64,000 nt of DNA from Octopus vulgaris (taxonomy: Eukaryota), in assembly GCA_951406725.2 (NCBI GenBank), contig OX597819.1:132742001-132806000 (forward strand), in the 5' to 3' direction. Each line of letters begins with the position of its first letter. The first letter of the stretch is position 1. The notes beneath the pieces are model-generated. The model saw nothing but the letters and a program-made list of their open reading frames with translations. It ran no database searches and had not been told where the DNA came from. Positions 1 to 64,000 of this stretch are shown here, piece by piece. A program made the translations under genes and the position numbers.

Positions 1-570
1 CTCCGTTACTCCAACTGGTTCATATACTCCACTATTCAGCCACATATGATGTCACACAACAGATGAAATCCGTTCATGTACCGCAAAAGGGCCGCATGCA
101 TAAGCTGATGTGAATATGTGTTTCCTTATGCACGCTGCCCTTACGAATTGCATCCACCAACTGCATCTCTAGCGTGACATCATCGGTTACCGAACACTGA
201 AATATACGTAACAAATGAAATGAAAGAAAACCACGTTCAAGATCAGGATTTCTTTTATTTTGCTTCTCTCATTATTGATCTGCTCTTATATTAGGTTAGG
301 GCCCATAACAAATTGCGTCGGACCCTTGCAAACATGCAGCGGTGGAAGCTTCACACGATTAACAGAAAGAGAGGAAACCTGAATGGAATAATTTTCCCAT
401 GCTGAACACATTTTATCATATGTATATATGTTTATAGATTTTGAGAAAAAGGAGGCAGTCAAAAGTTTGGATAATTCTTTAGTAGCGTTTTCGTTCGTTA
501 ATCGAACTCTTCAGGACAGAAAAGCCAAAATGATAAAAACAGAAGCCTTCCTTGTTCTTTTATGTGAATC

Positions 571-645
<75 letters not shown>

Positions 646-730
646 TTAGAGACAAAACCACTATTTTGCAAAACAAACAAGGAAAGACTTAATCAATACA
701 TAAAACTTTAATAAATAGTCAAAAAAACCG

Positions 731-773
731 CCACTACAATTGTTTCTTGTCTTGATCGACAATCTTCAGGTGG
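731..773 (-). ncRNA. Minimal type-I hammerhead ribozyme
   Basis: Reverse complement reads ccac-CTGAAGA-ttgtc-gatcaa-gacaa-GAAA-c-aatt-g-TA-gtgg: intact core, stems I and II, palindromic stem III. Confidence 0.85.
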
Positions 774-2538
774 ACTTCCAATCTAAAATATCAATATTTT
801 AAAATATAAAAATAATAATTTTAAAATAATTAAAGTATGAATGAAAAAATATAAATATATAATCCATATATAACCTATATATAATCCATATATAATACAC
901 ACACGTAAACCACACACCCTCGACATATACAAATACCCACACCACTTACACATACCTATACATACATATAAACCTCAACATACACTCCAAAAACCCACTC
1001 AACCCCACACAGACAAATAAACACAAAAATTATGAATGGATTCTTTTATAAAACTACCATGATAAGCTAAAACTCACAAAACATAAATGATAAAACCTCC
1101 CTTTACTAAACACTATAACATACTTATATAGCAATCCCTTTAACCTATACATTCACACACAAATACACACACGTAAACCACACACCCATAACAAATACAA
1201 ACACCCACCCCACTCACACACACCCACAAGTACATATAAGCCTCAACATATACACCAAACAAAATTACTTTACCAAGGAACTTAACATATGTATAAAAAA
1301 TATATAACCGCTCTGGAAACGAACATCTTTAAAATAATGAATGGAGAAATGGGATAAATGGAATTAAAAATAATATTCACGTGGCAAAACGAACACCACT
1401 CAAAAATTATGAATGAAACAATGTAATAAAACAACCAACATCGAAAATAGACAAATTACCACGAATTCCCTAAAAAAACCCATGATAAACCAAAACTCTT
1501 AAAAACATATAACGATAAAATCTCCCTTTACTAAACTCTATAACAAACCTATATAGCAATCCCCTAACCTAAACATTCACACACAAAAACACACACGTAA
1601 ACCACAGACCCACAACTTATACACATACCTATACTAACTTATAAACCTCAATATACACCAAAAACCCACTCCCTCCCCACACAGACAAATTAACACATAC
1701 ATCCCAAAACCTAAATAACAAACCCATATACACATTCACACACAAACACACACACACGCAAAACACACACACACAACAGATACATATACTCCCTCAATAT
1801 ACGCATATACATACTCACTAAACTCGATATATACAACAATATTTACACACCCACACTCATACAGATAAATAAATTATACAACTAAAAAGTCACACACAAT
1901 CTCATATACATAAACACTCCAATAAAAAACAACATTAAATACATCGTAATTAACCAGAATATCAAAAATAACAATATGACATAAGGAGAAATAAAATACA
2001 TACTTACAAGTCAGTTTCAAATTATGTTAAGTTCCTTGGTAAAGTAATTTTGTTTGGTGTATATGTTGAGGCTTATATGTACTTGTGGGTGTGTGTGAGT
2101 GGGGTGGGTGTTTGTATTTGTTATGGGTGTGTGGTTTACGTGTGTGTATTTGTGTGTGAATGTATAGGTTAAAGGGATTGCTATATAAGTATGTTATAGT
2201 GTTTAGTAAAGGGAGGTTTTATCATTTATGTTTTGTGAGTTTTAGCTTATCATGGTAGTTTTATAAAAGAATCCATTCATAATTTTTGTGTTTATTTGTC
2301 TGTGTGGGGTTGAGTGGGTTTTTGGAGTGTATGTTGAGGTTTATATGTATGTATAGGTATGTGTAAGTGGTGTGGGTATTTGTATATGTCGTGGGTGTGT
2401 GGTTTACGTGTGTGTATTATATATGGATTATATATAGGTTATATATGGATTATATATTTATATTTTTTCATTCATACTTTAATTATTTTAAAATTATTAT
2501 TTTTATATTTTAAAATATTGATATTTTAGATTGGAAGT

Positions 2539-2581
2539 CCACCTGAAGATTGTCGATCAAGACAAGAAACAATTGTAGTGG
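2539..2581 (+). ncRNA. Minimal type-I hammerhead ribozyme
   Basis: ccac/gtgg stem I, CTGAAGA, ttgtc/gacaa stem II, GAAAC-AATT-GTA with a GUA cleavage triplet. Confidence 0.85.
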
Positions 2582-2759
2582 CGGTTTTTTTGACTATTTA
2601 TTAAAGTTTTATGTATTGATTAAGTCTTTCCTTGTTTGTTTTGCAAAATAGTGGTTTTGTCTCTAATAATATTTTATAATATTTTACTATAAAATTGGAT
2701 TTAATCCTAAATCTGATTTTTTCCCTGTAAATTTGGATTTATTCCCTAATATTTATTAT

Positions 2760-2804
<45 letters not shown>

Positions 2805-2816
2805 AATATATGTATA

Positions 2817-2862
<46 letters not shown>

Positions 2863-2975
2863 TATATACATATATACTTATGCACATTTATGTATATATA
2901 TACATACACACACATATATGTGTATATATATATATGTATATATACATACATACATTCTGTATGTATACACACACG

Positions 2976-3006
<31 letters not shown>

Positions 3007-3067
3007 AATGCATATATATATGTATGTATGTATTTATATACATACATACAAACATACATACATACAT

Positions 3068-3450
3068 CACTTTCACTTTGATCACTTTGACCGACCAGTC
3101 CGTCAGGCGTCCATTTGACACCGCTGGTCACAGTACGCTGTCCACTCCTCTCTGGATCGCGCCTTTCTCACCCACGTGATCCCAATCGTCCTCTTGAAAT
3201 CGTCACTCCACCGTCGTGGAGGTCTTCCGGGTGGTCTTTTCCGCTCACGCGGGTACCACACGACAACTGCATGCGCCCACCGATTATCGGTGAGCCGGGC
3301 GACGTGTCCAGCCCATCTGTACTTGCTGCGAGTATACTCTGCGATGACATCTCTCACGCCGGATTTCTTTCTGATGATGTTGCTATTTATGTGCTCTCTC
3401 AAAGAGCCATGGAAAGGTCAATGCTTGGTATCTCGTTGAGAGAGCACATA
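3068..3450 (-). mobile_element. RTE-clade LINE 3' fragment with 5' inversion
   Basis: Minus-strand translation RWAGHVAR...WYPRERKRPPGRPPRRWSDD; (AAAGTG)n tail at 3068-3090; upstream QRAMERSMLGISLREHI segment inverted at 3397-3450. Confidence 0.85.
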
Positions 3451-3994
3451 CATACATACATATATTGATATACATAGATATAGAATGAGAGAGAGAGAGA
3501 GAGAGAGGGGGGGGGAAAGAGAGACGGAGGAAGGGGAAAAGAGGAAATTGTTGAAAATGAAAATCAATTACATTTCGTAAACTTCCATATTTCTGCCCCT
3601 AAACCCAAGCTGCACAATATTAGAAGCGACACCTATATTCCAAATTCTACAGCTCACTATCCCTGAAAAACTCTGTTAGAGGAAAGCAACTTCCCTAGCA
3701 TATCCATGACAACATCTCAAAGATCCTTAATGTTCTCCTGACACCCCACCCCTCTCTCCCAAATTCCTTATACACTATCTAACCTTCTACAATGCTCAAA
3801 GGAATCCCAGCATGGAATTCTGCTTCCTCATCTGAGACAGAGCTGCTTCTACTTTATACACACAACCACCCGGAACTGCAGCCAGAGAAATATTTCTCCA
3901 CAACTGGCCTTGAAGCTACTCAAAGAATTCTTATTTCCACCTCATCCTCTCTTTTCTTCTTTGACTAAAATTCGTTTCCTTCTCTCTCACTCTT

Positions 3995-4130
3995 TACTCT
4001 TTTACTTGTTTCAGTCATTTGACTGCGGCCATGCTGGAGCACCGCCTTTAGTCGAGCAAATCGACCACGAGACATATTCTTTGTAAGCCCAGTACTTATT
4101 CTATCAGTCTCTTATGCCGAACCGCTAAAA
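3995..4130 (-). mobile_element. tRNA-derived SINE 3' fragment
   Basis: Reverse complement of the tail of the SINE at 28273-28687 (ggcggtgctccagcatggcc...tgactgaaacaagtaaaa). Confidence 0.75.
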
Positions 4131-4269
4131 CATCAGAATCTTCTTCCTCACAGCTAAGTTATTCCGGCGACCATTCTGAACTGTTCTGGGTTACTCTCTG
4201 CTAATGAGAGACGATAAGAAGGAAACCCGATTCATTAAGGACATATGGCAAAAGAGGAAATTTGCGAGT

Positions 4270-4432
4270 CGCAGGTGTGGCTGTGTAGTAATAAACTCGC
4301 TTCCCAACTGCAAGGCTCCGGGTTCAATCCTACTGCATAACATCTTGGGCAAGTTCCTGTTATTATATCCTTGGGCTGACCAAAACCTTGTGAGTAGATT
4401 TAATAGACGGAAACTGAAAGAAACCCGTTGTG
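4270..4432 (+). mobile_element. tRNA-derived SINE 5' part
   Basis: A-box-like tggctgtgtag, B-box ggttcaatcc; same body as 28273-28440. Confidence 0.75.
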
Positions 4433-4507
4433 ACCCTTACGAGCTGAGTTTTCGTCAGAAGCTTGTGTAACTTTATGTCGCACTGAGCCAAATCGAACTG
4501 CTTTAAA

Positions 4508-4533
4508 TGATGATAATAATAATAATAATAATG

Positions 4534-4600
<67 letters not shown>
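4508..4600 (+). repeat. (AAT)n microsatellite
   Basis: Direct reading. Confidence 0.95.
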
Positions 4601-4602
<2 letters not shown>

Positions 4603-4719
4603 TGGTTGTGATGCATGTGCCTGGTGTACCTTTATCAGACAGGTAGTCATGATGGGTATATTGGGCTTCGTATATTTTACCCCAGTGTCACTTTGATGGC
4701 ATGAACTGCTCTCTCACTC
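4601..4719 (+). mobile_element. 5'-truncated copy of the ~535-bp non-coding (AAT)n-associated element (family A)
   Basis: Matches 7137-7252 and the reverse complement of 60707-60825; ends ctcactc followed by (AAT)n. Confidence 0.8.
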
Positions 4720-4789
4720 AATAATAATAATGATAATAATAATAATAATAATAATGATAATAATAATAAGAAGAATAATAATAATAACG

Positions 4790-4821
<32 letters not shown>

Positions 4822-4822
4822 G

Positions 4823-4898
<76 letters not shown>
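4720..4898 (+). repeat. (AAT)n microsatellite; LINE target site
   Basis: Direct reading; it produces the false poly-Ile N-terminus of ORF 4730-6391. Confidence 0.95.
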
Positions 4899-4899
<1 letters not shown>

Positions 4900-6568
4900 C
4901 GTGAAAGCATTCAGCGATGACATCGGGATGGAGTTTGGACTTGAGAAGTGTGCCAAGGCCACTTTCCAGAAAGGGAAAGTGAAGACCACAAATTCAGTCG
5001 TGTTAGATGTTGACACAGTCATAAGAGAGCTTGAGCAAGAACAAACATACAAATATTTAGGGATAAATGAAGGCTCTGGTATTCAGCATGCAAGCATGAA
5101 AGAGAAGATCAGGAAGGAATGTTATAGGAGAGTTCGTGCAGTCCTGAAATCTGAACTAAATGCACGTAACAAGGTGTTAGCTATAAATTCCTTAGCAGTT
5201 CCAGTTGTTACTTATAGCTACAATGTGTTGAACTGGAATATGAGTGAAGTAAAGAATATAGATAGGAAAGTACGCAAGCTGCTGAGTTGTAATAGGATGC
5301 ACCACCCAAAGGCAGACGTAGATCGCCTTTACCTTCCCAGAGCCCAAGGAGGTCGAGGCCTGATCCAATTTGAACTAGCTTACAAAACAACCACAATTGG
5401 ACTGGCCAAATATCTCGAAATATCGAATGACTGGATGCTAAAGCTCGTGGAAAATCACGAGAGACGAAAGAAGCTTCATTCTATCATCAAGGAAAGCAAA
5501 AAATTTGCTATTGATCTCGTGCAGGATACCCAAACTGAACAACCCGAGGGAAGTACGGCAACTATTGTTGCAAAGAAGGTGAAAATGATGGCAACGAAAA
5601 AAGCGCACGAGCAATTGGCTGATAGGTGGGAGGAGAAACCTCTGCACGGCAAATATGTGACCCGCAGCAAACAAGCTGATGTTGACCAGAAGCAAACCCA
5701 TCAGTGGCTACGGAGCTCAGGGCTAAAAGCAGAGAGCGAAGGTTTCATCCTGGCTGCTCAAGATCAAAGCCTATTAACCTGGAACTACCAGGCCAATGTG
5801 ATGAAAAATGGAGCAGACCCAAAATGCCGATTCTGCAACGACATGATTGAAACAGTGGACCACCTAATCTCTGGATGTAAAGTCTTAGCACCAGTGGAGT
5901 ATAAATTAAGACATGACAGAGTTGGCCAATATCTCCACTGGCTAATAAGTCGGCATTACAATATCAAAACTGCCGACAAGTGGTATAATCACCACCCTGA
6001 GGCTGTAACTAAAGGAGAAAATGTAGCGATTCTGTGGGACTTTCCAGTACATACAGACCGAACCATCAAGGCCAATAAGCCAGATATTGTTGTGAAAGAC
6101 CAAAACAATAAAGTTTGCTTATTGATCGACATGAGCATCCCCTGTGATCATAATATCTCAGCGAAAGAGTTTGACAAGCTCAGAAAATATAAAGACCTAC
6201 TCATTGAAATTGAGAAAATGTGGCATCTCAAGGCGGTTACAATACCAGTGATCGTAGGAGCACTAGGAATGATCAAGAAGGGAACCGAAAATTATATGAG
6301 AATGATCCCTGGCTTACCATCCCTGCAAGAAGTGCAAAAGATTGTCTTAACTTGTACATCACACATATTGAGAAGAGCATTGTCGATGTGAGAACTGTTG
6401 CTGCTCATGTATTTTAATTTAACTTAAAAAAAAAAAAAAAAAAAAAAATTAACGAACTATTGAGTTTGGTTTAATGGCCTACCAATGTATACTATGAGTT
6501 TCTTTGCCCTATGAGTCGGGAAGACACTCGGCAAGAAATGGAAGCAAATTTGAAAGAAGAAAAAAAAA

Positions 6569-12900: not shown

Positions 12901-12988
12901 GCTCTCGTACGACATCTAACGACCGTAGAGTCAATGATATATACGAGGGTTTCTGAAAGGTTGGTTGCTTTAAGGGTATCGCGATGTA

Positions 12989-13218
12989 GGCGGCGAGCTG
13001 GCAGAAACGTTAGCACGCTGGGCGAAATGCGTAGCTGTATTTCGTCTGTCGTCACGTTCCGAGTTCAAATTCCGCCGAGGTCGACTTTGTCTTTCATCCT
13101 TTCGGGGTCGATAAATTAAGTACCAGTTACACACTGGGGTCGATATAATCGACTTAATCCGTTTGTCTGACCTTGTTTGTCCCGTCTGTGTTTAGCCCCT
13201 TGTGGGTAGTAAAGAAAT
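12989..13218 (+). mobile_element. tRNA-derived SINE with gtcgactttgcctttcatcctttcggggtcgataaa core
   Basis: Near-identical to 32885-33110 and related to 57360-57575 and 62586-62787; B-box gagttcaaattcc. Confidence 0.85.
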
Positions 13219-13388
13219 ATATATATACATTCTTGCTAGGCCGTTCTATATATCTGTTTTCTATTCGCAAATATACTTTTTACTTCCTGTGTCTTTTTTT
13301 ACATAAGCTTACTTTATATGTTTAAGAGCCATGGTAATATTTATATATGATCAAATGTTTTTGGAGGCGTGCTATTATAGATAAAGTC

Positions 13389-13527: not shown

Positions 13528-14920
13528 CAGTCGTCCTCAAAATTGTTTATACTCCATAAAAAGTAACATTCTTTTGTTGATTCTTCATTTGTAAAAGCTA
13601 TAAAGTTGGTTCTTCCTGTGTGTCTTCTGTTACTATGCAAAAATCCACATTTGAGTTGGCTAACATTAATTTGCATAATAATAGATATGGCTTAAAGTTC
13701 ATTTTTGCACACGTTCAGAATTATTCACTTCCTGTAAATATGCTAATCTTTGTCCTATAGTTATTTCCAGAAGAGTATAAATGAAGTATAAAAAGAAGAA
13801 AATTGTTCGGGTCATTCTCGGTTTCTGATCATCATGGTGAAGAAGGATCTCAGTAAGGACCTACATCAACGTCTTGTGCATGTCCGCAGTGAGGAAGGGG
13901 TTACAAAGCCATTTCAAAGCAGTATGATGTCCCTGTGGCAACCGTCCAGAGCATAATCAACAAGCACAAGAGGTTCAACACCTAAAACCCTTAGTGGGCG
14001 TAGCAGGAAGCGTAAGGTGACTCCCAAACTTGTCGGGAAAATCTGACGAGAGGTCAACAAACCCCGAGAGGTCAAACAAAGCCCTAATTGAAACGCTTAA
14101 CTAGGCAGGGACGAAGGTGTCACGGCCCACCACTGAGCGAGTCTTGCACAGAGGAGGTCTCCCTGGACGCAGGCCTCGGAAGACACTGTTGCCCAGGAAG
14201 AAACATCTGGAGGCCTACCTGGCATTTGCTAGAGGTCATCTGAAACAAGATCCCAGGGTTTAGTCAACCATCTGGTGGTCTAATGAGACGAAGTTGGAGT
14301 TAATTTGCCACATGGATGCTAAATATGTCTGGGGGAAGAGAGGAGAAGAACACTGTGCCCACCAACAAACATGGTTGTAGAAACATAATGCTATGGGGAT
14401 GCTTCTTTTACAGTAGGAGGGGGAACCTTGTCAAGGTCCAAGCAATCATGAGAAAGAAGGATTATTTCAGGAAACTTGATGAAAACGTGAAGGAACCCGC
14501 TGAGAAGCTCCAACTCGGCCACAACTGGAAGGATCAGCAGAACAATGATCCGAGACATACTATCAAGGTAGGGAAGAGATGGTTCAAGGATAATGATGCC
14601 AATGTCCTAGAATGGTCAAGCCAGAGTCCTGACCTGAATCTGACGGAGAACTTGTGGCAAGACTTGAAGACCAAAGTGACGACAAGGAAATCGACCAATC
14701 TGACCCAGCTCGAGGATTTCGCCAAGAAAGAGTGGGCCAATCCCACAGGAAACTTGTAGGAAGCAGTCATAAAAAAACAAAGCAAAGGCTATTGACTATT
14801 AAAAAAAAAGATATTGGACTCAGGAAATCTAAGGAGTAAATAATTTTGAACATGGTATCTTTTGGAAATCCATGAATAAGAACGAAGAATTTCTGGAATG
14901 AAGAATTTCCTGAATTGTAT
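13528..14920 (+). mobile_element. Tc1-like DNA transposon, degenerate
   Basis: Starts TA|CAGT inside (TA)n; degenerate terminal and inner repeats (tcaaaattgtttatactcc vs ggagtaaataattttga); ends in (TA)n. Confidence 0.8.
13834..14800 (+). pseudogene. Tc1 transposase pseudogene
   Basis: GYKAISKQYDVPVATVQSII HTH, WSNETK (first D mutated), QQNNDPRHT, WSSQSPDLNLTENLW; frameshifts and stops. Confidence 0.9.
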
Positions 14921-32884: not shown

Positions 32885-33270
32885 GACCTGGCAAAGTCGT
32901 TTGCACGTCGGGCGAAATGCATTGCAGTATTTTGTCTGTCGTTACGTTTTGAGTTCAAATTCCGCCGAGGTTGACTTTGCCGTTCATCCTTTCGGGGTCG
33001 ATAAATTAAGTACCAGTTACGCACTGGGGTCGATATAATCGACTTAATCCGTTTGTCTGTCCTTGTTTGTCCTCTCTGTGTTTAGCCCCTTGTGGGCAGT
33101 AAAGAAATAGGTATTTCACTCGTCTTTACATTCCGAGTTCAAATTCCACCGAGGCCGATTTCGTCTCTCATGGTAGGTCGATACAATAAATGCGTGTTGA
33201 ACACTGGAGTTGGTTTAAGTGACTTAGCCTTTTCCCCAAACCTACTGGCCTTGTGCTAGAATTCGAAACC
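32885..33270 (+). mobile_element. SINE, dimer-like (core repeated at 33110-33270)
   Basis: Near-identical to 12989-13218, then a second gagttcaaattcc core. Confidence 0.8.
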
Positions 33271-43456: not shown

Positions 43457-43467
43457 AAACTACTGGT

Positions 43468-43678
43468 CTCAGATTTTGGTACAAGGCCAGCAATTTTTGG
43501 GAGGAAGCAAATCGATTACATCGATCCCCAGTGCTCAGTTGGTATCCATTTTATCGACCCCGAAAGAGTGAAAGGCAAAATCGACCTCGGCGGAATTTGA
43601 AGTCAGAATGTAAAGACGGACGAAATGCCGCTAAGCATTTTCCCTGGACTGCTAACGATTCTGTCAGCCCGTTGCTGT
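43468..43678 (-). mobile_element. SINE (12989 family)
   Basis: tttatcgaccccgaaag..tgaaaggcaaaatcgacctcggcggaatttgaa is the reverse complement of the core. Confidence 0.8.
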
Positions 43679-49982: not shown

Positions 49983-50404
49983 TTTCAAATTTTGGTACAT
50001 GGCCAGCAATTTGAGGGGGGGGGGGGTAAATCGATTACATTTACCCCAGTGCATAACTGGTATTTATTTTATCGACTCCGAAAGGATGAAAAGCAAAGTC
50101 GACCTCGGAGGAATTTGAACTCAGAACATAGAGACACGAAATGCCGCTAAGTATTTTGCCCGGCGTGTTAACGTTTCTGCCAGCTTGCTGCCTCGTCAAT
50201 GATGATGATAATCCTTTCTAATATAGGCACAAGGCCTGAAAGTTCGAGGGAGGAGTGTAGTCGAACACATCGACCCCAGTACTTGACTGGTACTTAATAG
50301 ATCGACCTCGAAAAGATGAAAAGCAAAGTCGACCTCAGCGGAATTTGAACGTAGAATGTAACATTTCGTCCGGTGTGCTAACGATTCTGACGGCTCGCCG
50401 CCTT
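49983..50404 (-). mobile_element. Two tandem SINEs (12989 family)
   Basis: Core gaaaggatgaaaagcaaagtcgacctc appears at ~50080 and ~50310; short AAT/GAT spacers. Confidence 0.8.
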
Positions 50405-52669
50405 GTCAATAATAATAATAATTATTTTGTTTTGTATTTGCAAGATTTTAGATGTGAAATTGTCTGTTGAATGAGATATTGTTATAGTTCAAGAGAGCCA
50501 TTTTGCCAAAATAAAACCACGGACTGGTTATAGTTCACTTCTTTATTGTTCGCCAATCCATTGATTACTGATTTGTTTCGGTTGTCAAAAGACTTTTTCG
50601 TTACATATACGAATGGCTATCTCCACCGGTTGCCATTTTGTAACTGACTTTCTTTTTGATGTTCTTTCTAATTTGCTAAGCTTCATTTTGTTGCCAAACA
50701 TGTATGTGTGTGTGTGTGTTGTGCAGCTATTGTGTGCGTACGTGTGTGTGAATGTGTTTATAGTATGTGTGCGCATGCGTGTGTTATTGGTGTTGCTGAA
50801 TGTGTTTAGGTGTGTATTTATGTGTGTTGGGTTTACTTTTTATTGTTTATGCCTAATTTCTCTTTTTCTATTTTAATTTCACACTTTACTGACTTCCTAT
50901 TATTGATTTGCAGTTTGTTATGAAATAGATTCGTTTTTCTCGACACCAGGCATTCTTAACTTCTTGGCTAGATTTTGCGAGAATTCTTTTTATATTAATT
51001 TTGCAAGAGTTTTTGATGTGAAAGCCTCTCTTCTAATTGATATTGTAATACATTTGAAAGGTCAGTTTGCCATTAAAGATATAGACACGATATAAAAATG
51101 GTTCCTTTCTTTATTGTCAAGTAATCTAGTAATTATTAATTTATTCGTTTGGTTTATCAAAAAACTGTTTTCATCACACTTCTCTTTGACCTTCTAAATA
51201 AGCAGCCATTCTCCAATTGACTAGGGACCTGCATCATTATGGCTGCAATTTTAGATTATTTAAATCTGTCATATCCTAATGGTAGTCATACCGAGCTGAT
51301 GGCCATGCTGTGATTATAAGCTGGCTCACCATCAGCCAGTTTTATAGGACTTGGCTTTTTGATTTTCTTTCTTCTGTTTCTACGTAGTTATTATACTTTT
51401 TCTTTCTATTTCGTTCTGTTGCAGGGTAAAATGTTTTTCTCGCTTCATATATTTTCCAGCCATTTCCCTGAATTCTATTCTAAAGTCTGTTAGCCTTTCA
51501 GTTTCTTCTTCATAAGTACTTCAAATATAGATGCAGTTCTTGGGAAGGTTAATCTCTGGCGAGAATTCTTGGTGTTAGGTAAAAGCATTTGTGACGTCAT
51601 TTGTTTTGCAGTTTCTGAGAATTTACTAAAACAAAGCTTTGAAATAAGTTCGAACCAAAATAAAGTTTGCTTTAACAATTGTTTTTTTCTTTCTGGAAAA
51701 TAACTGTGAAATCTATATTATCGGTGGAATGTCCTGCATGCTGACCCCGAGTATTGAGTAGAAGCTATATCGGTTCACAATAAGTTTCGATCATATCAAT
51801 AACAACCTGTTAAATGGTGAGCCATATTGTCGTGAATCTTTATAGAATGGAAGTTGTCTGAGACCGAATGGTAGTAGATTAGAATCCTATCAATAGATAA
51901 ACATACCAGCTACTGACATCATGGAGATACAAGAGGCCGTCTTTAAAAAAGGGTAATGTTCAACATAAAATAAATTTACCACCAAATGGAACCTATTGTC
52001 GTGTTATCACCATTATGTTTAATTCGTACATAGAATTTATCTGCATAAAGCATAGATATTAATCACGATGAGTTATCACATAAATGCGTTATATCCTTCA
52101 CAGTTTTTCAGTTGAAGAAAAAGCTTTTGGGATGAGAAGCCATCTACGAATAAAAAAGTATTTACCATAGCAAGGAAAATAAATAAAATAATAATTGGTA
52201 TGAAATCATAAGTTTGTCAACGAAGTATTACAGAAATCTGACGTGAAGCAAACTATAACTGGTCTATATTTGCTGGCGTTTGGAGAGATGAAAAATAAAT
52301 CAACTGCAGCGGAGTCTGGACAGAGATAAAAGAAATGATGTAAATTAAGATGCCACTCAAGTCAACGGAAAACTGTTTTCTTCCAATTAAAATCGTTATT
52401 TTCTGTCAAAATATTTGAATCGTATATCATTCAGAAACAATAAACAATAACATATTTCGGGCCTTGTTGCAAGTCTTCCGGACTATGAGGCGATCATATT
52501 TTTTTCCGGTTCGCTTTCTCTATATGCAAAGTAACCGATTTCTGACTGTTTCTTACATTTCAAGTGTAATAATGCCGACTGATAAACTTTTGTTATGTGG
52601 TAAGTTATGTCTATAACAGAAACTTTTAACCCCAATTTTGATGCAAACACCCTGGCACGTAAACCCAGA

Positions 52670-52787
<118 letters not shown>

Positions 52788-52903
52788 CCTTGTAGTATGC
52801 CGATCAAAGCGCTTTCACTGTTTACGGCTACCTGATGTCATCAACAGAATGGATATAAATGCCACTGTGTCTATCCCAGGAATTCTTCAGTGTCCATCAA
52901 GTA

Positions 52904-53487
<584 letters not shown>

Positions 53488-57359: not shown

Positions 57360-57578
57360 GAGTCACCGAGGCGGCAGAATCGTTAGCAAGCCGGACAAAA
57401 TACCTTACGGCATTTCATCCGTCTTTACATTCTGAGTTTTATTTCCGCCGAGATCGATCTTTGCCTTTCATCCTTTCGTGGGTCGATAAAATAATTATCT
57501 ATTTAGTACTATGGTCGATGTTATCAACTTCGCCTCTCCCCCAAAATTGCCGGCCTTGTGACGAAATTTGAAACCAAT
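57360..57578 (+). mobile_element. SINE (12989 family)
   Basis: ggcagaatcgttagc...ttgcctttcatcctttcg..gtcgataaa. Confidence 0.8.
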
Positions 57579-58564: not shown

Positions 58565-60390
58565 ATGTGTTTTCCTTTCCAGTGATTTCATTTTCCAGTT
58601 GTTTATTCTTCCTGGTTCATTTTGTTTCTTAAATGTGTGTGGGTGCATCGCAATTTCGGTAGGTATTTTATTGTTAATTCTAACAGCGGCAAATAAGGAT
58701 TCCCTCTGCTGTTTGATGTACCATCCCAGACTGTTCTTCTCGTTGACAACACAGATCTTGCATCCTATGAGACCTCCTCCACCTCTGTTTCTAGGCACAT
58801 ACAGTCTGTCAGTATCGCTTTTCGGGTGTAGTTCCTTGTTAATTGTCATCACTTCTAGCTTTCCTTCATTTCATTTTCCTTGATTTTGTCGCATTCTAAA
58901 ATCCCCAGATATTTATATCCATTAGTCTCAATATCCTTGATTTTTCTCGCCGTTGGGTAGTTCTACACCATCAGACGACACCATTTTGCCTCTTTGTATT
59001 ATAAGCATACCACACATTTTAGTCTCAATTCCATTCCGATATCCTTACTAAATATCTGCACTGGTGAAATTAGACAATTTATTTCACATCCAGTCTTTCC
59101 AAAGATTTTAACCCATCCATATATAACAGATGATTTAATTTTCCTCCACTCTTCAAGTTGTACCCAGATGTCACTTTCCGTTGTATCTGTGTGACGGGTA
59201 TCATACAAATCACAAACCGCAGCGGTGACAGGCTATCTCCTTGAAATATGCCTTTCCTGATATAAACCGTCGCATCTTTGTTATGCTTTCTTCCATTATC
59301 CCATCTGTTACTCCAAAATCTGTTGATTCCTTCAAGGGTCTGGTCTCTCACAGCTTTTCATTCAGCTGTTGATAAACCTTTTTCTAGTCATGTTGGAACA
59401 ATCTGTTTTTTATATTGTTCAATGTTTTAGTCATATCTCTTGATCTTTGTCGCTTTAGCCTGCAATCTTTGTTTCAGCTCTTCAAGAACTGCATTTAGCT
59501 TCCTTTTTCTTTATCCCATAACTACATTCTATTTCCTGATATTTCTCCTCTCACTTAATTTCACTTTTTTCCTTTCTTTCCAAGATGGTGATATGTTTTT
59601 GCAGTTCTTTCATTGATTGCTTTATTGTTCTTTTCCACCAAACTTCTTTTTTTTCATTCCCACATTTATGGTTTGGTTCGAGGCCTACTTTACTTCCTGT
59701 ACAGAAGATGCAGGTTTTAATCAATCTCTTCGCTCCGCTTATATTATCTGTCTTGATTTCTTTCAGTATTTTATTCACCTTAAGGGTCCACCCCCTGAGC
59801 AAATTTCTATCTACTTCCCTGAATCCATTTATTTCCATATCCAGGTTTTCCCCAAGGATTCTAGTAATGTCTTCGATCGTTCCTTTGTCTTCGTTATTCA
59901 GTCCTCTTCTACACTCGCTGCTTCAGACATTATACTTCTCTCATTTCCTCTCATTAAGTGCAGCATCGTCATCATTCTCTGTCTCTCCTTCTGCAACGCT
60001 TCCCCTGTTTTCTGTCATCACCCGCCTCCTAATCTCATCGAGCTCTATTACTGTTAGCCATTCTTTCTTCTTTATTCCTCTTACCTGGCCACAGAGTCTG
60101 TCTTCCGTAATACCTGCACCCTGCTTCTCCATCCATATGTTATGCATCATCTTTCTACATCCTCTTGTGATTCTCCCTTCATTTTCAGTGTTTCTTTTCA
60201 AAAACTAACATTCCATGGCAGCTGTATTCATCATCTTTGTCCATTTAGATCTGGGGGCCGTATTATGACGAGCGGACCTGTGCTGCTCACCTACAGGGCA
60301 CCTGCCGGGTAAAAATACGTCACCTATCGTCCCATCCTCATTTACGCCGTTGTTTGTGTCAATTATATTATTCATTACTCTCACGCACAT
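58565..60390 (-). mobile_element. Degenerate R4/Dong-like LINE, N-terminus to RT, internally deleted
   Basis: KWT..N..MEC / ITEDRLCGQVRGIKKKEWL; GIFQGDSLSPL; LNHLLYMD; YKYLGIL; HPKSDTDRLYVPR..GGGLI; abuts (ATT)n. Confidence 0.85.
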
Positions 60391-62572: not shown

Positions 62573-62585
62573 CTTATTATTATTA

Positions 62586-62787
62586 AGGCGGTCAGCTGGC
62601 AGAATCGTTAGCATGCCGGCCAAAATGCTTATCGTTATTTCGTCCGTCTCTAAGTTCTGATTTCAAATTCCGCCGCGGTCGACTTTGCCTTTCATCCTTT
62701 CGGGATCGATAAAATAAGAACCGGTTGAGTGCTGGGGTCGATGTAATCGACTTACCACTCCAGAATTTGACAGGCTTTGTAGAAAGT
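62586..62787 (+). mobile_element. SINE (12989 family)
   Basis: ggcggtcagctggcagaatcgttagc...gtcgactttgcctttcatcctttcgggatcgataaa. Confidence 0.85.
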
Positions 62788-63121: not shown

Positions 63122-64000
63122 AGTTCGTTCATTTTTTTTTTTAAAGTTAAATTAAAATACATCGGTAGTAATAATTCACATCAACAATGCTCTTCTCAAT
63201 ACGTGTGATGTACCAGTTAAGACAATCTTTTACACTTCTTGCAGGGATGGTAAGCCAGGGATCATTCTCATATAATTTTCGGTTCCCTTCTTGATCATTC
63301 CTAGTGCTCCTACGATCACTGGTATTGTAACCGCCTTGAGATGCCACATTTTCTCAATTTCAATGAGTAGGTCTTTATATTTTCTGAGCTTGTCAAACTC
63401 TTTCGCTGAGATATTATGATCACAGGGGATGCTCATGTCGCTCAATGAGCAAACTTTATTGTTTTGATCTTTCACAACAATATCTGGTTTATTGGCCTTG
63501 ATGGTTCGGTCTGTATGTACTGGAAAGTCCCACAGAATGGTTACATTTTCTCCTTCAGTTACAGCCTCAGGGTGGTGATTATACCACTTGTCGGCAGTTT
63601 TGATATTGTAATGCCGACTTATTAGTCATGTCTTAATTTATACTCCACTGGTGCTAAGACTTTACATCCAGAGATTAGGTGGTCCACTGTTTCAATCATG
63701 TCGTTGCAGAATCGGCATTTTGGGTCTGCTCCATTTTTCATCACATTGGCCTGGTAGTTCCGGGTTAATAGGCTTTGATCTTGAGCAGCCGGGATGAAAC
63801 CTTCGATCTCTGCTTTTAGCCCTGAGCTCCGTAGCCACTGATGGGTTTGTTTCTGGTCAACATCAGCTTGTTTGCTGCGGGCCACATATTTGCCGTGCAG
63901 AGGTTTCTCCTCCCACCTATCAGCCAATTGCTCGTGCGCTTTTTTCGTTGCCATTATTTTTACCTTCTTTGCAACAATAGTTGCCATACTTCCCTTGGGT
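63122..64000 (-). mobile_element. Family B R4/Dong-like LINE copy, running off the window and frameshifted
   Basis: Near-identical protein to 5540-6391; a 25-nt deletion after RHD shifts the frame; 3' UTR ends at the (GAA)n tract. Confidence 0.9.

Follow-up and report, generated by a model that had tools for sequence, protein, structure and literature searches.

Two nearly identical inverted arms lie close to the left edge of the 64,000-nucleotide stretch of Octopus vulgaris DNA analyzed here (the window). The arms (positions 639 to 1289 and 2023 to 2673) are 651 nt each and differ at a single position in a base-by-base comparison (920, partner 2392), in agreement with an earlier reading made from the sequence alone, which had described them as near-perfect. 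Extended to 634 to 1289 and 2023 to 2678, they form the longest inverted repeat of the 64-kb window, with mismatches at 638 and 920 as the only two in 656 nt. The features of the locus are as follows.

571 to 638, no strand: left (TA)n microsatellite, the likely insertion target; it adjoins the left end, and (TA)n is the target of nearly all Hydra-clade families of Penelope-like elements (PLEs) that have been listed
639 to 2022, minus strand: long 5′-truncated copy, 1384 nt, non-coding, with its 3′ end pointing left
639 to 1289, minus strand: left arm, the 3′-terminal 651 nt of the long copy
731 to 773, minus strand: minimal type-I hammerhead motif; cleavage is predicted after 735
1290 to 2022, minus strand: "spacer," the upstream continuation of the long copy and no independent loop
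1475 to 1629: direct duplication in the spacer, 85% identical to 1050 to 1205
1608 to 1697: direct duplication in the spacer, 85% identical to 935 to 1025
2018 to 2028, no strand: head-to-head junction, between 2022 and 2023
2023 to 2673, plus strand: short 5′-truncated copy, identical with the right arm, 651 nt, with its 3′ end pointing right
2539 to 2581, plus strand: minimal type-I hammerhead motif that includes the palindrome ACAAUUGU (8 nt); cleavage is predicted after 2577, 96 nt short of where the arm ends
2674 to 2762, plus strand: A+T-rich extension of 89 nt at the right end only, a candidate PLE "tail" that could be host DNA
2763 to 2800, no strand: right (TA)n microsatellite

The sequence-only reading took the locus for a foldback element, a description that we revise. 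The 733 nt between the arms have the orientation and the G/T-rich sense composition of the left arm and hold direct duplications of left-arm segments (82 to 85% identity); the supposed loop is therefore the upstream continuation of the left arm, and the locus consists of a 1384-nt minus-strand copy joined head to head to a 651-nt plus-strand copy. On its sense strand, the long copy is 48% T, 25% G, and 6% C, and the G+T fraction of the arm (0.71) is reached by none of the 93 other 651-nt windows. The element had also been called ORF-less, and indeed stop-free frames on the long copy's sense strand reach 63 codons at most. The same-orientation spacer with its duplications, the one-sided 89-nt extension, and the (TA)n at both outer ends are all additions to the earlier reading. 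The 64-kb window holds a single copy of the foldback, and no partial head-to-tail tandem forming direct pLTRs occurs at the locus, a feature that is optional per copy and is judged here on one copy. At the start of the long copy (2000 to 2022, minus strand), five codons and a stop (FETDL*) overlap a GTAAGT donor-like motif; these may be the final residues of an ORF or the start of an intron, and the segment is too short for a test. Just 1 nt separates the start of the short copy from the center of an 8-nt palindrome, ACATATGT (1285 to 1292).

Arms this similar could in principle be produced by assembly, through a fold-back chimeric read, a mis-join of repeat copies, or polishing that made the arms identical, and the available text of Craig et al. 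2021 (PMC8557442) states that PLE structures of this kind trouble assemblies. We regard such an artifact as very improbable because the duplication ends at the element's own 3′ end and excludes the flanks, the outer flanks differ from one another, a mismatch is retained at 920/2392, the turn point lacks a hairpin, and the layout is a biological pattern known in many species. In particular, no fold-back palindrome or hairpin is present at the 2022/2023 junction itself.

Each arm carries one 43-nt hammerhead motif, and both motifs face outward (2539 to 2581 on the plus strand and 773 to 731 on the minus strand). The parts of a complete type-I hammerhead that had been reported for each arm are all there: a 4-bp stem I (CCAC/GUGG), CUGAAGA as core, a stem II of 5 bp capped by a 6-nt loop, and GAA. 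The palindrome ACAAUUGU (8 nt) stands where stem III would be, so that stem III is, as previously noticed, only a palindrome, and the GUA triplet ends at 2577. These are the only two descriptor matches in the 64 kb, and none was found in any of 60 first-order resampled control windows. The same pattern retrieved nothing from viral contigs; from metagenomes it retrieved 15 stretches that match both core boxes, all by chance and none a relative, as no stem I of more than 2 bp is present in any of the 15. Because the metagenome matches lack the helices and the resampled windows are empty, the hammerheads are not chance matches. The covariance-model check proposed by the sequence-only reading gave no corroboration, in that Rfam reported no hammerhead family (E ≤ 1 on 1 to 6000; E ≤ 10 on 2530 to 2680) and the matches obtained were microsatellite-driven miRNA models or chance. 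The closing pair of stem II is U-A here, without the usual G10.1-C11.1. Both copies run uncut through the cut site (2577 or its equivalent). "Intact" is a term that we apply to the hammerheads at the level of sequence only.

The left end of the element directly adjoins (TA)n, as do 1.6% of random window positions, with 7.4% lying within 90 nt of a tract. No target duplication beyond 1 nt is present at 639/2673, and a discrete TSD is unreadable within (TA)n. Direct matches of 27 to 30 nt between the two flanks appear only if the right end is placed at about 2762, a hint, though no proof, that the 89-nt extension is part of the insertion. A second copy of this extension does not occur in the 64-kb window.

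These ends also bear on whether the locus could be a DNA transposon of the foldback or MITE type that has long terminal inverted repeats, has captured a hammerhead, and moves by cut and paste. Long terminal inverted repeats, the lack of an ORF, and degenerate internal repeats would all be expected of such an element. Its interior, however, continues one arm with a strong strand-specific G/T bias, there is no target duplication of more than 1 nt at 639/2673, the extension is one-sided, and the hammerhead occupies the position and orientation that it has in PLEs. We therefore consider a cut-and-paste origin highly unlikely.

The locus does show three architectural features of PLEs (EN+): a 5′-truncated, head-to-head inverted copy with 3′ ends outward, a hammerhead with a palindromic stem III near the 3′ end, and, as in PLEs of the Hydra, Naiad, and Neptune types, insertion at (TA)n. 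According to the accessible sections of Craig et al. (PMC8557442), 5′ truncation, an adjacent inverted 5′-truncated copy, and a one-ended tail of 30 to 40 bp are typical of PLEs, and their insertion is biased to microsatellites. In Files S1 and S2 of that paper, as far as these are available, (TA)n is the target of 26 of the 27 Hydra-clade PLE families. Like the present locus, Hydra-clade PLEs combine a (TA)n target with a minimal type-I hammerhead near the 3′ end whose stem III is a self-complementary AC...GU, although such a stem III does not single out this clade. The closest likeness in layout is Penelope-13_HM (Repbase; PMC8557442, portion available), in which, owing to an inverted 5′-truncated copy (nt 1 to 966), each strand carries a hammerhead close to an outer end. 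The locus differs from a typical Hydra-clade member in lacking an ORF and in carrying a non-coding 3′ region of 1.3 kb or more, a length that fits poorly with typical complete Hydra elements (2084 to 2729 nt in all), and its hammerhead sequence differs from all 26 rows of the available list, including Hydra-1_Obim, when compared by eye.

Similar hammerheads were described by Cervera and de la Peña 2014 (PMC4209133), whose available text reports minimal PLE hammerheads with a palindromic 15.2-16.2 region/helix III and no cleavage as monomers, as well as dual minimal hammerheads "~100-700 bp" apart on opposite strands that are related to truncated PLEs. Our motifs agree with their consensus (CUGANGAH ... 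GAAAN-palindrome-NUH) and share the short helix I, the opposite-strand pairing, and the lack of a predicted monomer fold. They depart from what that text gives in two respects: the two motifs lie about 1.8 kb apart instead of 100 to 700 bp, and helix II has 5 bp and is closed by U-A in place of G10.1-C11.1.

Two further studies, again as represented by the parts available, concern how PLE copies come to be inverted and tailed. Arkhipova et al. 2013 (PMC3846280) found head-to-head to be the commonest inverted arrangement. Frangieh et al. 2024 (PMC11167929) reported that a PLE protein cuts and extends both strands and prefers AT-rich DNA, that its reverse transcriptase (RT) copies uncut RNA from two internal start sites, the tail being the interval between them, and that insertion does not need the hammerhead, which cuts only in the presence of protein. 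Adineta vaga Penelope (PMC3846280) and the Anolis PAc element (PMC11167929) resemble the locus in their head-to-head copies, an uncut RNA template, and an AT-rich target, and their tail on one copy has a candidate counterpart here; the arms here are longer (651 nt versus about 200 nt), as is the candidate tail (89 nt versus 30 to 40 nt), judging from the same sections.

Two other groups of elements were considered and set aside. Animal non-LTR retrozymes, as described in the available text of PMC7229834 and 10.64898/2026.07.22.740005, are likewise non-coding, have a type-I hammerhead, and are probably connected to PLEs, but they are head-to-tail tandems of 150- to 450-bp units, whereas the copies here are inverted and exceed 1.3 kb, so that no hammerhead-to-hammerhead monomer or circle could be released. 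An inverted pair with no head-to-tail 150- to 450-bp units in 560 to 2100 rules out this class. The Naiad PLEs of cephalopods share the (TA)n target and inverted copies, and their tails may correspond to the 89-nt extension; they lack canonical hammerheads, however, and are long-dead remnants in cephalopods, as stated in the portion of PMC8557442 available. Membership in the Naiad clade is ruled out by the complete hammerhead motif of the locus, and the 3′ ends printed there for Naiad_Obim and Naiad_Ovul are unlike this one by eye.

Together, these observations make it probable, in our view strongly so, that the locus is a single recent insertion of a Penelope-like retrotransposon, consisting of two 5′-truncated non-coding copies head to head between (TA)n, and that the inverted arm was made during insertion. 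In the mechanism that we propose, the PLE GIY-YIG endonuclease would cut both strands inside the TA tract, and RT would prime from both ends on uncleaved element RNA, beginning at two internal start sites, one equivalent to 2673 on the left and the other at about 2762 on the right. Two different start sites would leave a tail on one side. Both cDNAs would stop early and then be joined. The hammerheads would have been carried along as passengers with the source element's 3′ end (pLTR) and would act, if at all, as dimers or with the help of protein, in tandem source transcripts.

An inverted arm could also have been added after the insertion of a single PLE copy, if DNA repair or template switching subsequently made an inverted duplicate of the 651 nt at its 3′ end, without a second reverse transcription. 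The short copy lies entirely within the long copy, as such a history would predict, and it begins beside the palindrome at 1285 to 1292; 3% of long-copy positions are equally close to a palindrome of at least 8 nt, and this palindrome was noticed post hoc. On the other hand, the sequence from 1290 onward offers nothing complementary to the long copy's 3′ end for snap-back priming, the right copy has 89 nt that are missing on the left, and copying ends exactly at the end of the element. Simple snap-back copying is less likely because of the absent complementarity at the short-copy start and the extra sequence at the right end, and we give later duplication as a whole only a very slim chance.

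Duplication during insertion agrees with the youth of the inversion, which is far younger than the body of the element because the arms differ at 1 of 651 nt whereas the internal duplications are 15 to 18% diverged. The single mismatch has a 95% interval of 0.03 to 5.6. If the octopus calibration quoted in the available part of PMC13282606 applies (JC 0.09 = 25 My), the inversion is about 0.2 My old, and at most about 1.2 My, with the caveat that conversion or polishing can homogenize arms. The earlier proposal of a recent non-autonomous Penelope derivative is thus retained in part: a Penelope-like origin is the best reading and the difference of 1 in 651 fits recency, but non-autonomy does not follow, since a 5′-truncated copy from a coding family whose 3′ region is long and non-coding would look alike.

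We used folding predictions to consider what RNA the locus could yield. In the isolated 43-mer, helices I and II form at probabilities of 0.59 to 0.94 and the A15.1-U16.1 pair at 0.03. The minimum-energy co-fold of two sense copies of the 43-mer is exactly a double hammerhead; the dimerization energy was rejected as evidence, as 46 of 300 shuffles were equally good. Within their own sense-only flanks, the hammerhead helices have predicted probabilities of 0.01 or less. In the fold predicted for a read-through RNA, 650 of the 651 arm pairs are made, and the antisense arm pairs with every one of the 43 hammerhead bases. A dimeric ribozyme is also impossible in cis, because it needs two sense copies and the inverted pair supplies one sense and one antisense. 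With the hammerhead buried in the duplex and no cis dimer, a self-cleaving read-through RNA from this locus is unlikely; should transcription run through the locus, the predicted product would be a plain 650-bp duplex. The sequence-only reading had proposed both a transcript with a self-cleaving end and a 650-bp duplex RNA. These models speak against the first; they predict the second, should the locus be transcribed, as a duplex in which hammerhead self-cleavage is unlikely.

The same predictions weigh on the idea that the foldback is itself a transposing non-coding unit that carries both arms, with outward hammerheads that trim read-through RNA to a long duplex for small-RNA or editing pathways. 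Such a unit would account for at least 1.38 kb without an ORF, for the intact hammerhead core in both arms, and for the predicted 650-bp duplex, and it has precedent in published non-coding PLE parasites, namely, retrozymes (PMC7229834 and 10.64898/2026.07.22.740005, available portions) and MRC1 (PMC8557442, likewise). It is hard to reconcile with arms that are nearly identical beside internal repeats 15 to 18% diverged, which indicates that the inversion was newly made, with an extension at one end only and a single copy in the window, or with a hammerhead wholly paired to the antisense arm in the predicted read-through RNA and no cis dimer. We judge this explanation improbable.

We searched for a coding source and for relatives of the element. 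A Pfam search of 287 frames from the window (5 additional frames and 282 of the 327 listed, the other 45, mostly repeat-laden, being omitted by eye) showed no PLE domain and no convincing host-gene domain or host exon; apart from sub-threshold noise, it gave only weak remnants of RT, zf-RVT, and DDE domains. PLE membership consequently rests on architecture, as no PLE ORF (RT or GIY-YIG) is tied to the family. The lack of an ORF in this copy is no proof of non-autonomy, because Pen1_Av, a coding family, has a non-coding spacer of 0.9 to 1.5 kb ahead of its 3′ pLTR (PMC3846280, available part). A coding family whose 3′ non-coding region is long has a slight edge over even odds as the source, and a non-coding family moved in trans comes somewhat short of even. 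By word matching, 20 of the 24 sequencing runs listed contain the stretch or part of it, across 8 studies, and the listed runs with at least half of its words bear 4 organism labels; none of the listed runs that contain it is recorded as RNA. These word matches, which are not alignments, suggest a repeat family common to related species.

A 25-nt end motif had no match in prokaryote genomes. Three 12- to 13-nt motifs had no match in the supplement of PMC8557442, nor did short motifs in PMC13282606, and no matching hammerhead row was found in the supplement of PMC4209133, of which one file fell outside the search; line wraps could hide matches in all three. We found no paper on this particular family, which may already be contained in the O. 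vulgaris consensus library (Zenodo, outside the search), whose available description gives 190 Penelope-like consensus sequences.

The layout itself is already described for PLEs, and what is unusual here is modest: the long arms, the long, repeat-expanded non-coding body, and possibly the long tail. The locus is a clean young example of a known Penelope insertion signature, and its near-identical arms and one extended end fit the two-strand priming from two start sites that is seen in vitro. Studied together with its sibling copies and an empty allele, the locus could contribute to a test of how PLE inversions arise. More speculatively, the family could be a young, ORF-less Penelope parasite with a body of more than 1.3 kb, far above the size of retrozymes, that spreads via (TA)n in several related animal species and whose insertions, or the unit itself, are foldbacks of about 650 bp that seed sources of double-stranded RNA with ends set by hammerheads. 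We think this unlikely; the importance of the locus would rise if the family did prove to be a long non-coding parasite or if its insertions supplied edited or diced duplex RNA.

The window contains several other repeats. A literature search by SINE motif found no paper on a dispersed family of 160- to 225-nt repeats, 71 to 90% alike, at 12988 to 13219, 32885 to 33109, 43465 to 43677, 50027 to 50212, 50259 to 50418, 57360 to 57575, and 62574 to 62754. We take this family to resemble an octopus-genome SINE, and the SINE and microsatellite pattern of the window as a whole is presumably octopus-like. At 52901 to 53365, an old palindromic element of 465 nt (71% self-complementary) lies between TA and CA tracts; it contains no hammerhead core, is MITE-like, and is unrelated to the inverted arms. 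Weak DDE_3 (Tc1/mariner-like) and RVT_1 remnants, under the Pfam cutoffs, occur at 14304 to 14756 (plus strand) and 59082 to 59357 (minus strand). To the right of the inverted element, a G+C-richer stretch without a Pfam match (3070 to 3420, minus strand) looks to us like the 3′ end of an RTE-type LINE. Two 5′-truncated copies of a non-LTR retrotransposon, 94 to 98% identical, lie at 4697 to 6425 (plus strand) and 63144 to 64000 (minus strand), and we assume them to be of the R4/Dong type. The first of these enters from an (ATA)n tract. Homologs carry RVT_1; a protein search with the ORF of this type gave one match at 97% identity, and named matches were at most 64% identical.
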